Shown: in pieces, positions 33,186-50,715 of the stretch
How the letters are laid out: every line of letters starts with the position of its first letter
How positions within the stretch are numbered: position 1 is the first letter of the stretch
Assembly (NCBI GenBank): GCA_963734295.1
Contig: CAVTGS010000012.1
Location: 326,099-390,098 of the forward strand
Reading direction: 5' to 3'
Length of the DNA stretch: 64,000 bases
DNA from: an uncultured beta proteobacterium
GTDB taxonomy: Bacteria; Pseudomonadota; Gammaproteobacteria; Burkholderiales; JAEUMW01
The notes under the pieces: generated by a model
Seen by the model: only the letters and a program-made list of their open reading frames with translations
Told to the model about the DNA's origin: nothing
Databases searched by the model: none
Made by a program: the position numbers and the translations under genes

Positions 33186-36100
33186 TCAAGCCACCGCCCA
33201 CTCTTGGCTGAGTAGCGCCGCCTGCTCCAGCACGGTCTGCGTCGCCTTCTCCTGCTTGTCGGGCGGGTAGCCGTACTTGCGCAGGATGCGCTTGACCAGC
33301 ACGCGCAGCTGCGCGCGCACGTTCTCGCGCAGCGTCCAGTCGATGGTGACGTTGGCGCGCACGGTCTCGACCAGCTCCTGCGCGATGGTCCGCAGCGTCT
33401 CGTCGCCCAGCACCTTGACCGCGCTGTCGTTGGTCTCCAGCGCGTCGTAGAACGCCAGCTCGTCCTCCGAGAGCCGCAGCGCCTCGCCGCGCGCGTTGGC
33501 CTCGCGCATCTCCTTCGCGAGCGCGATCAGCTCCTCGATCACCTGCGCCGCCTCGATGGCGCGGTTCTGATAGCGGCGGATCGTCTGCTCCAGCATCTCG
33601 GCGAACGAGCGCGCCTGCACGACGTTCTTGCGGCCGCCGCGTGCGCGAGCTCGCCCTTCAGCAGCTTCTGCAGCAGCTCCACCGCCAGGTTGCGCTGCGG
33701 CATCCCGCGCACCTCGGCCAGGAACTCCTCCGAGAGGATCGAGATGTCCGGCTTCTGCGAGCCCGCCGCGGCGAAGATGTCGATCACGCCCTCCGGCGCC
33801 ACCGCGCGCGAGATGATCTGCCGCACCGCGTGCTCGATGTCCTCCTCGGGCCGCGCGTCGCCGGGCGCGCGCTTGGCGAGCACCGCCTGCACCGCCTGGA
33901 AGAACGCCACGTCGTCGCGGATGCGCAGCGCCTCGTCGTGCGGCACCGCCAGCGCGAAGGCCTGCGACAGCTCGCGCACGGCGCGCACGCAGCGGTCCTT
34001 GCCGTTCTCCTGCGCCAGGATGTGCTCCTGCGCCGGCGGCAGCAGGCCGAGCCGCTCCTGCGGCGTCCCGGTCGTCCACTTCGACCAGTCGAAGCCGTGG
34101 AACAGCCCGGCGCAGACCTCGTACTTCTCCAGCATCACGGCGACCGCCTCGTCCTGATCGAGCGCCGTGCGCCCGGTGCCGCCGCTCTCGGTGTACGTCG
34201 CCAGCGCCTGCTTCAGCTCCTGCGCGAGGCCGAGGTAGTCCACGACCAGGCCGCCCGGCTTGTCCTTGAACACGCGGTTCACGCGCGCGATCGCCTGCAT
34301 CAGCCCGTGCCCGCGCATCGGCTTGTCGATGTACATCGTGTGCAGGCTCGGCGCGTCGAAGCCGGTGAGCCACATGTCGCGCACGATCACGAGCTTGAAC
34401 GGGTCCTTCGGGTCGCGGAAGCGCTTGGCCAGCGCCTCGCGCCGCGGCTTGTTGCGGATGTGCGGCTGCCAGTCGGCCGGATCGGAGGCCGAGCCGGTCA
34501 TCACCACCTTGAGCGCGCCCGTGCTCGTCGTCGGCGCCGTCCCAGTCAGGCCGCAGCTTCACGATCTCGCGGTACAGCTCGACGCAGATGCGCCGGCTCA
34601 TGCAGACGATCATCGCCTTGCCGTCCATCGCCTCCAGCCGCTTCTCGAAGTGCTCGACGATGTCCCTGGCCACCAGCTCCAGCCGCTTCTCGGCGCCGAC
34701 CACGGCCTCGAGCTGCGCCCACTTGGTCTTGAGCTTCTCCTTGCGCTCGACCTCCTCGCCCTCGGTCGCCTCCTCGAACTCGGGGTCGATCTTCGGCCGC
34801 TCGGCCTCGTCGAGCGCCAGCTTGGCCAGCCGGCTCTCGTAGTAGATCGGCACCGTGGCGCCGTCCTGCACGGCGCGCTGGATGTCGTAGACGCTGATGT
34901 AGTCGCCGAACACCGCGCGCGTGTTGGCGTCCTGCAGCTCGATCGGCGTGCCGGTGAAGCCGATGAACGAGGCGTGCGGCAGCGCGTCGCGCATGTGGCG
35001 CGCGAAGCCGTCGATGAAGTCGTACTGGCTGCGGTGCGCCTCGTCGGCGATCACCACGATGTTGCGGCGGTCGGAGAGCGTCGGGTGCCGGTCGCCCTTC
35101 TCCTCGGGGAAGAACTTGTGGATGGTGGTGAACACCACGCCGCCCGCCGCCACGCTGAGCAGCTCGCGCAGGTGCGCGCGGCTCTCGGCCTGCACCGGCG
35201 GCTGGCGCAGCAGGTCCGGCAGCGCGAGAAGGTGCCGAAGAGCTGGTCGTCGAGGTCGTTGCGGTCGGTGAGCACGACGATGCGTCGGGTTCTCCATCGC
35301 CGGCTCGCGGATGATGCGGCCGGCGTAGAACGCCATCGTCAGGCTCTTGCCCGAGCCCTGCGTGTGCCAGACCACGCCCACGCGCCGGTCGCCGGGCTTG
35401 CCGCCGGGCTTGCGGCCCGCCTCGTAGCGGCCTTGCTCGCCTCGGCGACCCGATCGGCCGCGCTGCAGCTCCGCCGCGCGCAGCGTCTCGCCCACCGCCA
35501 CCTGCACCGCGTGGAACTGGTGGTAGCCGGCCATCTTCTTGACGATGCGGCCGCCGTCGTCCTCGAACACGATGAAGTCGCGCAGCAGGTCGAGGAAGCG
35601 CCGCGGCGCGCACAGGCCCTCGATCACCACCTGCAGCTCGGGCAGGTGCGCGTCGGCCAGCGTCTCGCCCGCGATGGTGCGCCAGGGCTTGAACCACTCG
35701 CGCCCGGCGCTGAGCGTGCCCACGCGCGCCTCCACCCCGTCGGAGACGACGAGCAGCGCGTTCGGCGCGAACAGCGTCGGCACCTCGGCCTGGTAGGTCT
35801 GAAGCTGCTGGAAGGCGCTCCAGATCGTGGCGTTCTCGTCGGCCGCGTTCTTGAGCTCCAGCACCGCCAGCGGCAGGCCGTTGACGAACAGCACCACGTC
35901 CGGCCGGCGCGTGTGCTTGTTCTCCGCGACGGTGAACTGATTGACCGCCAGCCAGTCGTTGCCGCCGGCGTCGTCGAAGTCGATCACCCGCGCCTGCGCG
36001 CCGCGGATGCTCGCCGTCGGCGTCGCGGTACTCGACCGTCACGCCATCCACCAGCAGTCGGTGCAGCGGCGCGGTTGCGCGCGATCGAGCTCCGCGACCC

Positions 36101-36334
36101 TCGGGCCGCGTGAGCTTGCGGAAGGCGTCTTCCAGCGCCTCGGCGGGAAGCGCCGGGTTGAGCCGCGCGAGCGCATCGCGCAGGCGCTGGGCCAGGACCA
36201 CCTGCCCGTAGTCGTCGCGTTCGGCAGCCGGTTCGCCGGGGGCGATCTCGGCGCCGTTGCGGACCGTGCCAGCCGACGCTCTCCAGCCAGGCGAGCGCGG
36301 CCTGCTCGACGACAGACTCCGAGAATCGCGTCAC
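33186..36334 (-). pseudogene. hsdR: Type I restriction enzyme R subunit HsdR (copy A), at least 8 frameshifts
   Basis: HsdR sequence is spread over ORFs 35984..36577, 34546..36201, 33186..35987, 35051..35275 and 33539..34507. It contains [21 protein letters not shown] and [22 protein letters not shown]. Details are in the findings. Confidence 0.85.
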
Positions 36335-37206
36335 CGGCCCCCTGCCATTCGGGCTGCCTTCAGAGCGCCCGCAACGAGGACGCGGATCTCCTCGACGACG
36401 TGCTGCAGGCCGGGCGCTTCGAGGCGGTTCTTGTCGACAAACGCGTTCCACTGCGTTTGCTTCGCTGCGTCGCGGGCGAAGGCGTCCGAAAGTCCGAGCG
36501 GTACGCCGTCGGGAACCGTAGTGCGGCGGCGCTCGAAGGTGGCCAAGATCGCGCGCTCCAGCTCTCCGGGATCGCATACGTTCTCACGCAGCAGCGCATG
36601 CAGGTCGAAATAGTCCTTCATCCGGCTGTTGGCCGACCCGAGCGCCACCATGGCATGCAGCTTCTCCGCCATCACGGATGCGCGGGAATAGGCACGCAGG
36701 CGAGGCCGGGGCAGATCGAGCAGGCTGGGATAGTCGATCCAGGCCGGCTCCGGCGTCACCACGTCGCCGACGCCGACATCGACCTGCACACGGAGCCGCG
36801 CCGCGCCGAGGCGGGACTGAAGCGTCACTCGGTGCCCGCCGTATTCGGCTTCCAGGCGGATCGGTGCGACGCTCACCGTATCGGCCAGGAACGTCATCGC
36901 ATCTGGTTCGACGGTGGCGTTGCATACCTCGCCGAAGATCTGCGCCAGCGCATCGTCCGATAGGTCGCCGAAGCCCAGCAGGTCGGCATCGCGCGTCGGG
37001 CGAAGCGTATCGCCGAACCAGACTAGCAGGAGCAGCGCGCCCTTCAGCACGAACCGATCCCCATGGGGAGATTGTGAGAGCCGGTAAAGGAACCGCTCCA
37101 CGGCATAACGTGCGAGGACGAGGTTCGGGTCCACGCCGATCGCTTTCGCATGCCGCGCGAGCCGAACCTGCACCGAACGGGCGAGGCCGTCGCGCGCCCC
37201 GCTCAT
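36331..37206 (-). CDS. abiEii: AbiEii/AbiGii nucleotidyltransferase toxin (type IV TA)
   Basis: C-terminal 291 aa of ORF 36331..37305, from MSGARDGLARSVQVRLARHAK, with VLKGALLLL..RPTRDADLLG. Its stop overlaps the hsdR-A GTG start (GTGA). Confidence 0.8.
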   Translation of the reverse strand: MSGARDGLARSVQVRLARHAKAIGVDPNLVLARYAVERFLYRLSQSPHGDRFVLKGALLLLVWFGDTLRPTRDADLLGFGDLSDDALAQIFGEVCNATVEPDAMTFLADTVSVAPIRLEAEYGGHRVTLQSRLGAARLRVQVDVGVGDVVTPEPAWIDYPSLLDLPRPRLRAYSRASVMAEKLHAMVALGSANSRMKDYFDLHALLRENVCDPGELERAILATFERRRTTVPDGVPLGLSDAFARDAAKQTQWNAFVDKNRLEAPGLQHVVEEIRVLVAGALKAARMAGGR

Positions 37207-49504: not shown

Positions 49505-49521
49505 TGCACGTCCTTTTGTGA

Positions 49522-50715
49522 TCACGCGGGCGCCTGCGCAGCCCCGCCCCCGGGCCCCGCATCGTTGAACAGCGCGATATAGGGCGCAAAGCGAAAGCGC
49601 CGGTTGCGCGCATAGCCCGTCATTTCGCTCAGCACGCCGAGCCTCACGAGCCGGGACACCAGGCTGTTTGCCGCTGCGTAGGTGGTGCCGGTCATCTTCT
49701 GCACGTCATTTACCGCGACGATCGGTCGGTCGAACAGCGATTCGAGCACCTTGTGGCCGCTACCCGCCGCGCGGCCGAGTTGCGCCGTGATCGCGGCGCG
49801 GTGCTGCTCGCGCAGGTGCAGGATGCGCCGCACCGTCTCCGCGGCCTCGCCGGCCACCCCGATCACACCACGCAGGAAGAAGCTTAGCCAGTCCTCCCAG
49901 GCGCCGCTGTCGCGTACCGCCTGCAAGTGCTCGTAGTACGTCTGCCGGTGCTGCTTGAAGAAATGCGACAGGTACAGCACCGGCTTGTGCAGCACGCCGC
50001 GCTCGGTGAGCAAGAAGGTGATCAGCAGCCGGCCAACGCGCCCGTTGCCGTCGAGGAACGGGTGAATCGTCTCGAACTGCACATGCGCGAGCGCGATTTT
50101 CACGAGCGGCGGCAGGTCGTCGGACGCGTGCAGGAACTTCTCCAGGTTCCCCAGCACGTCGGGCACCGCGTGGTGCGGCGGCGGCACAAAGGTCGCGCTA
50201 TTCAGCGTGCAGCCTGCCGGGCCGATCCAGTTCTGGCTCGTGCGCAGTTCACCGGGCTGAAGCCGGCCGCCGCGCACGCCGCGCATCAGCTCGGCGTGGA
50301 TCTCGCGGATCAGCCGCACCGACACCGGCAGTTCGGGCAGCCGTGCCAACCCGTGGTTCATTGCCCGCACGTAGTTGATCACCTCGCCCACGTCGCGCGG
50401 CAACCTCTGTTCGAAGAGCTGCGCCTCGGCCGCCAGCAGGTCTTGCAGCGAGCTTTGCGTGCCCTCGATCTGGCTGGAGAGCACCGCTTCCTTACGCACA
50501 TACATGAAGACGAAGAGGTCGGGGTTCGGCAGGGTGAGCACCGACCCGTCGAGCCGACCCAGCGCGCGGTCAGCGGCCGACAGCAGGCCCTGCAGCTCGC
50601 CGCCCAGTGCCAGCGCGGGCTGTGGCGGCAGCGGTGCCGGCATGAACGCCCGGTAGCCCGTGGGCTGGGTGATGTAGCGTCCCGCTCTGATCGAGGCTTC
50701 GCCGCCAGTTGCCAT
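49522..50715 (-). CDS. Fic/DOC family protein
   Basis: 397-aa ORF with the Fic motif [14 protein letters not shown], a Fic_N-like N-terminus and a C-terminal wHTH. It ends just upstream of hsdM. Confidence 0.85.

Follow-up and report, generated by a model that had tools for sequence, protein, structure and literature searches.

How do several unrelated defence genes come to stand inside a single restriction-modification (R-M) operon, and what record of their arrival is left in the DNA? We addressed this question in a 64,000-nt window (the whole stretch of DNA analyzed, to which all coordinates refer) of contig CAVTGS010000012.1 from an uncultured beta proteobacterium, examining the island genes at 33186-50715. 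The backbone of the locus is a Type I R-M system whose genes run hsdM-hsdS-...-hsdR on a single strand. A SoFic-like Fic gene lies 5' of hsdM, and an OLD-type ATPase-nuclease gene, a DarTG unit and an AbiE unit lie between hsdS and hsdR. We consider it likely that this is an ordinary phage-defence island, built on a promiscuous Type I R-M family, in which successive hsdR starts record the stepwise addition of its pieces. An earlier interpretation made from the letters of the DNA and its translated open reading frames (ORFs), here called the sequence-only reading, had proposed the same gene order, had placed every gene except an IS1380-like transposase gene on the minus strand, and had described three unrelated toxin or abortive-infection modules between hsdS and hsdR; profile searches and ORF positions bear out all three points. 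The composite island measures ~17.9 kb (33169-50998).

The evidence for stepwise addition comes from hsdR itself. Repeat finding and alignment located three hsdR 5' ends in the island, as had been claimed: copy A, which starts at 36334 and runs to the gene end, and two remnants, B' and C' (Table 1). The three are 81-90% identical to one another, implying that they are distinct alleles and that no fresh duplication has occurred. B' has an in-frame stop and sits just 5' of a strong promoter-like site ahead of abiEi. The C' frame runs into darT through a GTGA overlap; this overlap and the GTGA that joins abiEii to hsdR-A, both reported in the sequence-only reading, are exact. The splitting of C' by an IS21-family insertion sequence (IS) was also correctly seen: its 5-bp target duplication, GCGCT, lies inside C' (40179-40183 and 42763-42767), and the element separates C' from its start codon. 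In composition, too, the pieces differ. GC content is ~0.67 across the window, and true coding frames are clearly distinguishable in frame-specific GC plots. The darTG segment (0.615) and the ATPase gene (0.621) are less GC-rich than hsdR-A (0.707) and hsdM (0.691), confirming an impression first gained by eye. At third codon positions (GC3) the values are ~0.98-0.99 for hsdR-A and ~0.94-0.99 for hsdM, compared with 0.85-0.90 for host genes and 0.75-0.85 for the cargo.

To survey relatives of this R-M family, we scanned the HsdM N-terminus against one genome per species and located the hsd genes by tblastn. This gave 80 loci at 77-95% HsdM identity, from Proteobacteria, Acidobacteriota, Chloroflexota, Planctomycetota, Spirochaetia, Nitrospira, an archaeon and others. 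Of these, 46 were informative, showing hsdS as well as the beginning of hsdR; the hsdS-hsdR interval held 0.66-6 kb of cargo in 44 of the 46, and hsdR directly followed hsdS in the other 2. The cargo fell into more than 100 sequence clusters and was dominated by known or candidate defence genes, namely PDC-S01 (AAA_14-DUF4143), AbiJ, Abi_C, AriA-like ATPases, GajA, SoFic, HEC-01, reverse transcriptase, HerA, HEPN and DUF1828/1829. The hsdS-hsdR interval of this promiscuous family is, then, a habitual landing site for defence cargo, and the arrangement in the window is not exceptional. Extra hsdR 5' remnants were present in five loci (L010, L014, L015, L025 and L064), and L025, which has two, is a second three-copy hsdR stack. 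All of these remnants start at hsdR codon 1 and are 59-690 nt long; their identity to the resident hsdR is only 74-90%, implying that they are not in situ duplications.

Two further observations were made among the relatives. Where cargo sits between hsdM and hsdS, the hsdM 3' end (the last 20-50 codons; 87 in L065) is duplicated just 5' of hsdS. This was seen in about eight loci, among them L010, L019, L021, L055, L059, L065 and L066, and additionally in L084 and L086, with Fic, Schlafen/AlbA_2, DUF1016 and other cargo, and the pattern mirrors the hsdR 5' scars. Separately, a Spirochaetia metagenome-assembled genome (MAG; L072) packs three to four hsdM-hsdS units of this R-M family in tandem into 20 kb. 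No hsdR is visible there, and the locus may be an array that offers a choice of methyltransferase and specificity modules.

Relatives with fewer modules were sought and found. In L086, hsdS overlaps the ATPase gene by the same 7 nt as in the window and is followed by a single Schlafen/AlbA_2-domain (SLFN) gene and an intact hsdR, with no darTG or abiE. L083 has GmrSD-like genes upstream and then darTG directly before an hsdR with 95% identity to hsdR-A, a one-module state that must be the one B' once had; identity between the window and L083 is mosaic along the locus, from 90% to 98%. L097 carries abiEi-abiEii-hsdR with the 4-nt overlap seen in the window. The independent JGI contig L096 has B'-promoter-abiEi-abiEii at 98% identity, behind a different module and another remnant. 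DarT proteins at least 90% identical to that of the window are encoded in three other contigs (L083, L084 and the short-read L085), each preceded by an hsdR 5' remnant whose TGA overlaps the darT GTG; the last ~24 nt of the remnant are common with the window, and the neighbors differ from locus to locus. L084 is a longer stack. It has AAA_15/21-DUF4276 upstream of the remnant and darTG, with RhuM/Fic and AAA_14-DUF4143 between darTG and hsdR, for five cargo genes. The full order at 1-17000 of this contig (ENA ERZ25039459 contig_15608) is hsdM, DUF1016, hsdS, a resolvase with an OrfB-type IS, AAA_15/21 and DUF4276, hsdR', DarTG, RhuM/Fic, AAA_14-DUF4143 and hsdR.

The recurrence of these junctions in independent contigs argues against their being chimeric in the window. 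R-M loci of different community members, if joined by an assembler at conserved hsdR 5' sequence, could create artificial repeats of the hsdR start; the source sequence is probably a MAG, and an R-M family common to many taxa at 80-95% identity is the type of repeat that confuses assemblers. We nevertheless regard a chimera as highly improbable. The junctions lie at non-homologous hsdR positions; the C'/darT junction type is found in three other assemblies, one of them a short-read contig; the JGI contig repeats the B'/abiE junction at 98% identity, and another contig repeats abiE/hsdR-A at 94.6%; B' has deletions of its own; and both IS elements have perfect target duplications.

We propose that the two later cargo units, DarTG and AbiE, would each have come together with hsdR sequence. 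Recombination would have been anchored in hsdR, and the prior hsdR 5' end would have been left as a scar 5' of the new cargo, C' first and then B'. The first event of each kind would have been illegitimate at its left end. Once an hsdR'-cargo-hsdR arrangement existed, it could have entered a related hsdR by ordinary double crossover, adding one more scar each time. This scar order implies that the promoter-distal, full-length hsdR-A is the newest copy, and a series running from C' through B' to A, oldest to newest, fits the fact that C' has been hit by an IS element and B' eroded. IS21 and the IS1380-like element would have inserted afterwards by simple transposition; their clean target duplications imply that they are late arrivals.

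A bolder proposal, which we entertain tentatively, is that hsdR 5' remnants serve as portable left homology arms. RecA-dependent double crossover would then insert cargo immediately 5' of a recipient hsdR, free of any integrase, and the R-M family would constitute an integron-like, recombinase-free cassette platform across phyla. If this were true, both ends of an hsdR'-cargo-hsdR segment would be homologous to any hsdR of the pan-phylum family, and the duplicated hsdM 3' ends in the hsdM-hsdS slot would reflect a mirror process.

Alternatively, the fragments might have been co-opted as leader ORFs, supplying a start codon and ribosome-binding site along with the leader of hsdR and coupling toxin translation to R-M expression. 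In favor of such a role, the hsdR' TGA overlaps the darT GTG not only in the window but also in L083, L084 and L085, despite strongly diverged remnants, and a conserved CATTTAGGCGCAAACC-like motif stands ahead of several hsdR starts. In the window, however, IS21 has cut C' off from its start codon, and B' lies out of frame, contains an internal stop and precedes a promoter-like site of abiE itself. Remnant lengths also vary, from 59 to 690 nt, and the L083 remnant resembles a decayed pseudogene. We consider co-option improbable. The CATTTAGGCGCAAACC-like motif recurs in the leaders of hsdR starts and remnants at ~38150-38180, ~42940-42960 and ~44645-44660 of the window, at ~11750 in L083 and at ~9850 and ~11750 in L084, and may be a regulatory site for hsdR.

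Table 1. Features of the defence island and its borders, in window coordinates
Feature	Position	Strand	Description
Left 37-nt direct repeat	33132-33168		12-codon orphan fragment of the 3' end of an Iso_dh-family dehydrogenase gene
hsdR-A	33186-36334	-	Full-length extent; HSDR_N, SWI2_SNF2/ResIII, T1R_D3-like and T1RH-like_C domains; 8-9 frameshifting indels as assembled
abiEii	36331-37206	-	291 aa; nucleotidyltransferase toxin by family; stop overlaps hsdR-A start (GTGA)
abiEi	37203-37811	-	202 aa; antitoxin and transcriptional regulator by family
abiE promoter-like site	37819-37846	-	TTGACA-16-TACGAT directly 5' of abiEi; 10/12 matches
hsdR-B' remnant	37903-38105	-	Decayed; own ATG kept; two internal deletions and a 2-nt insertion; ends after ...GNDWLAV
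darG	38261-39325	-	354 aa; macrodomain antitoxin by family
darT	39339-39956	-	205 aa; single-stranded DNA (ssDNA) ADP-ribosyltransferase toxin by family
hsdR-C' distal	39953-40183	-	Includes ~78 nt without assignment; stop overlaps darT start (GTGA)
IS21-family element	40184-42762	-	istA 41080-42654, istB 40268-41056; ends TGTCAG...GCGACA (TG..CA); inside hsdR-C'
hsdR-C' proximal	42763-42926	-	ATG at 42926; first ~54 codons
IS1380-like element	42977-44602	+	Transposase gene 43059-44582; 13-nt terminal inverted repeats; TTTAT target duplication; in leader 5' of hsdR-C'
OLD-family-like ATP-dependent nuclease gene	44778-46556	-	592 aa; N-terminal ABC ATPase and putative C-terminal TOPRIM-like domain; start overlaps hsdS stop by 7 nt
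hsdS	46550-47771	-	Specificity subunit; frameshift near 47660; start ambiguous as assembled
hsdM	47789-49525	-	Methyltransferase; -2 indel near 48700; 101-nt partial duplication at 48140-48305 as assembled
Fic-domain gene	49522-50715	-	SoFic-like; upstream of hsdM; stop overlaps hsdM start (GTGA)
Right 37-nt direct repeat	50999-51035		Within the 3' end of an intact dehydrogenase gene (50937-51992, -)

The backbone itself carries the domain set of a Type I system. Profile hidden Markov model (HMM) searches confirmed the earlier calls for all three subunits: HsdM (HsdM_N and N6_Mtase), HsdS (two Methylase_S target-recognition domains) and HsdR (HSDR_N, a superfamily 2 (SF2) motor and a C-terminal helical domain). 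As assembled, none of the three has an intact frame, with 8-9 indels in hsdR-A, at least two in hsdM and at least one in hsdS; related proteins and DNA mapped onto the locus likewise give at least eight frame changes in hsdR-A. What had been described as a full-length hsdR is therefore full-length in extent but not in frame.

These frameshifts are probably long-read metagenome consensus errors rather than true decay. Of nine indels in hsdR-A, eight insert 1-2 nt at sites other than homopolymers. In L083, another 'contig_N'-style assembly, the 95%-identical hsdR has 15 indels, 14 of them +1 and only one at a shared position. The ratio of nonsynonymous to synonymous substitution rates (dN/dS) between these two copies is 0.24, intact pairs giving 0.12-0.22, and after indel removal neither copy has an in-frame stop. 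Among isolate genomes and short-read contigs with the same R-M family, hsdM is intact at 560-834 aa and hsdR at 1047-1105 aa, and the contig that is 94.6% identical across abiE and hsdR-A shows one continuous frame. An AMP-binding (acyl-CoA synthetase-like) gene outside the island (30787-32296, minus strand) is broken into two overlapping ORFs as well (Pfam positions 3-244 and 248-384), implying that assembly frameshifts extend beyond the R-M genes.

True pseudogenization was considered as the principal explanation and downgraded on the strength of the dN/dS value, the indel pattern and the intact copies in short-read and isolate assemblies. Under this alternative, hsdM, hsdS and hsdR-A would be pseudogenes in a dead backbone invaded by two IS elements, and the relic would be kept mainly by its addictive toxin-antitoxin (TA) cargo (DarTG, AbiE) and stand-alone defence genes. 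It would explain why all three R-M genes are frameshifted while the Fic, ATPase, darT, darG, abiEi, abiEii and transposase genes are all intact as assembled. B' and a neighboring DJ-1 fragment are plainly decayed, IS21 and the IS1380-like element are present, hsdM and hsdR are fragmented beside DarT in L083 and L084 too, and the window/L083 dN/dS is slightly above that of intact pairs. Yet that ratio is still low, GC3 is still ~0.99 and neither 3.1-kb hsdR copy has an in-frame stop. The indels are nearly all single-base insertions, at different positions in two 95%-identical copies; assemblies from short reads or isolates have intact copies throughout; and a non-island gene is split as well. 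We think a dead backbone unlikely, if still worth serious consideration. There is a caution here for long-read metagenomes: conserved R-M genes of promiscuous families can resemble pseudogenes beside intact-looking cargo, and automated defence calls can be misled.

An additional observation concerns hsdM. Its 101-nt insertion (48140-48305) holds a diverged (~70%) second copy of a conserved ...FIDARKLG..RELTD... segment and resembles a scar of recombination between two alleles of hsdM; the long hsdM ORF stays open through this insertion together with the -2 indel near 48700.

Several points weigh against the stepwise history that we favor. As read, no intact protein comes from hsdM, hsdS or hsdR-A. 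The indel density of hsdR-A, ~3 per kb, is far above that of the cargo genes, in which none were seen, and we can account for the gap only on assembly grounds, for example if reads from related R-M loci were cross-recruited. The darT-linked remnants differ in length, with ~128 codons in the window and 44 in L083 and L084. They are also short, decayed and only 60-75% identical, too diverged for identity clustering to be informative, so a single origin needs an extra deletion. A 37-nt repeat flanking the island and a truncated DJ-1/PfpI gene at its left end are unaccounted for by the model, and the recombination route is read from the scars. Finally, C' could be what an internal deletion left of an upstream hsdR, and not a replacement scar. 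A Vibrio campbellii plasmid (L095, NZ_CP117990.1, 1850-10681) has the order hsdM-hsdS-hsdR-darT-darG, with darT starting 4 nt past the hsdR stop, implying that DarTG is able to sit 3' of a full-length hsdR too. The tail of C', '...ASLSEVAAP*', is only weakly like the family C-terminus (~15/33 nt by eye, a weak test).

The cargo assignments are supported by Pfam, PADLOC and NCBIfam models, and the DarT/DarG, AbiEi/AbiEii and Fic calls of the sequence-only reading all hold. DarT scored 203 bits with PF14487 (gathering cut-off, GA, 22.5) and 247.8 with NF048013 (cut-off 150), and DarG, encoded after a 13-nt gap 3' of darT, scored 451.6 with NF048014 (cut-off 250); both exceed the NCBIfam equivalog cut-offs. 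The abiE genes form a bicistron joined by an ATGA overlap, with 39.5 bits for AbiEi (AbiEi_4 wHTH, PF13338, GA 25), 164 bits for AbiEii (PF08843), and PADLOC E values of 6.9e-86 and 5.2e-95. The -10 element of the predicted abiE promoter ends 8 nt ahead of the abiEi ATG, implying that the abiE mRNA would be leaderless or nearly so. The island Fic matches PF13784 and PF02661 (Fic_N and Fic) and the PADLOC SoFic model (E = 8.7e-121, over 5-359 of 361), and its HxFx(D/E)GNGRxxR motif is intact. It scored 173 bits with the NCBIfam SoFic equivalog NF046030, which has a cut-off of 550, and is a relative rather than an equivalog.

The gene that overlaps hsdS had been described as a fused ATPase/DUF4435 gene. 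The ATPase was confirmed: the N-terminus is an ABC ATPase of the AAA_15/AAA_21 type, as in the OLD family. The 7-nt overlap with hsdS that had been noted, ATGCTGA, is exact. DUF4435, in contrast, had no Pfam match in the whole protein at E ≤ 0.01 or in the C-terminal 262 aa at E ≤ 10, and it was absent from all of the 120 ATPase homologs listed. The PADLOC model for an AriAB fusion covers no more than the ATPase core, at residues 259-331, and gives no full-length AriAB match. On the missing Pfam match and this core-only match, we rejected a PARIS/DUF4435 identity.

Instead, the product looks like an OLD-family ATPase-nuclease whose C-terminus is TOPRIM-like. Its best sequence match in the PDB is the Thermus scotoductus OLD nuclease 6p74 (E = 3e-6), and E358, D362, D435, D437, E458 and E460 are invariant across 38 homologs. 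A model of the C-terminal region (pLDDT 84, pTM 0.81) has OLD C-terminal regions from Xanthomonas and Burkholderia (6njw, 6njv, 6nk8 and 6njx) as its top four Foldseek matches in the PDB, though these fold matches are weak (probability 0.85-0.96, E 0.01-0.03, TM 0.33-0.43), and GajA and OLD are the only structures to which the full-length model aligns throughout. These four lines of evidence lead us to call the protein OLD-like and not a PARIS fusion. The N-terminal ABC ATPase followed by an acidic E...DxD...ExE domain with OLD-like fold matches is a layout it has in common with the OLD nucleases (P2 Old, 6p74, and 6njw/6nk8), GajA and PARIS AriA/AriB. It differs from Gabija, PARIS and OLD in that no GajB partner was recognized adjoining the gene, DUF4435 is lacking, the fold matches are weak and its clade is habitually coupled to hsdS. 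The family is large and well conserved, at ~600 aa, and sources label its members 'ATP-dependent nuclease'. Homologs lie between hsdS and hsdR in L086, L092 and L093/L094, comprising a short-read metagenome contig, where the homolog is 90% identical and overlaps hsdS by the same 7 nt, and two isolates that belong to other genera.

Both mobile elements named in the sequence-only reading were confirmed by HMM. The IS21 proteins scored 256 bits with NF033546 (cut-off 160) and 214 bits with PF01695, which places the element in that family. The other transposase exceeds its cut-off for PF13701 and falls below that for NF033539 (164.9 against 180), and the label 'IS1380-like' is fair. Compared with plasmids by megablast, the IS region matched only Ralstonia and Polaromonas sequences, weakly, which does not point to any one organism. 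The IS1380-like element lies, opposed in orientation, between the ATPase gene and everything downstream. It had been suggested that start/stop overlaps tie the genes into one operon. That claim fails for the present state, which is broken by this opposed element, by IS21 in the darT-coupled ORF, by the abiE promoter-like site and by the R-M frames as assembled; with two IS elements and a separate abiE promoter-like site, the locus appears no longer to be one simple operon.

From the named families, layered immunity can be predicted. An intact R-M system would cut unmodified DNA, and phage that escaped would trigger ADP-ribosylation of ssDNA by DarT, the nucleotidyltransferase toxin AbiEii, the OLD-like nuclease or AMPylation by Fic.

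The nesting of defence genes in Type I R-M loci is already known, including DarTG2 between hsdS and hsdR; the observations of the sequence-only reading are largely correct, and its interpretation holds in outline, though overstated. For Type I R-M, BREX, DISARM and Hma systems alike, the embedding of defence genes has been documented at scale as 'guilt by embedding' (Payne et al., 2024, bioRxiv 10.1101/2024.01.29.577857). There, as here, cargo lies within a multi-gene defence system, and much of the cargo of our relatives matches the PDC and HEC models of that study; compared with its examples, the present locus is an unusually long stack. The words 'hsdR', 'remnant' and 'recombination' do not occur in its text, implying that duplicated hsdR 5' ends and a mechanism of cassette gain are not discussed there. 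In enteropathogenic Escherichia coli (EPEC), the experimentally characterized RRDM island, RptR-HsdM-HsdS-DarT2-DarG2-HsdR-M48, also has DarTG between Type I hsdS and hsdR on the same strand, and the hsdS-hsdR site was named a potential recombination hotspot for defence systems (NAR 2025, PMC12255303). The present island differs in having three cargo units rather than one, hsdR 5' remnants flanking the cargo, two IS elements and a high-GC environmental host; no RptR-like small regulator or M48 peptidase gene was seen in it. TgvAB in the Type I R-M system of V. cholerae VPI-2, the C. jejuni rlo genes and PrrC are older cases of accessory restriction or abortive-infection genes between hsd genes, discussed as complementary defence layers (PMC11411939 for the TgvAB/rlo context). 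These have other cargo families and a single embedded unit each, and the passages that treat them mention no remnant scars. Among open-access texts, no paper was found that treats hsdR 5' remnants as scars or homology arms, only unrelated staphylococcal and other truncation cases. What may be modestly new is the idea of hsdR 5' scars as portable homology arms for integrase-free cassette exchange. The value of the locus is as a readable record, since its scars and recurring scar-cargo units give a testable route by which embedded cassettes could be gained and shuffled without dedicated recombinases.

The island as a whole is bracketed by 37-nt direct repeats that are 35/37 identical (0 matches expected by chance). 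Together with the flanking genes, the repeat pair suggests that the whole 17.9-kb block looks inserted. The repeat, taken from a gene 3' end, resembles an att-type duplication, though one without an integrase: searches of the island and of ORFs scanned on its flanks (~7 kb left, ~4 kb right) revealed no tyrosine or serine recombinase, in agreement with the earlier observation, and there is no tRNA gene within the window. Borders of the tRNA or integrase type were considered, and neither turned up. The right flank consists of the housekeeping genes dus, tsaB and rimI, and the left flank of acyl-CoA-synthetase-like and YqcI/YcgG genes. The DJ-1/PfpI-family fragment at 32735-33131 (minus strand) adjoins the left repeat; it is 5'-truncated, starts near the nucleophile-elbow motif CTGSLVLGAAGLL, and is frameshifted between ...LRRNAEPCA and RVVTDRNRITGAG.

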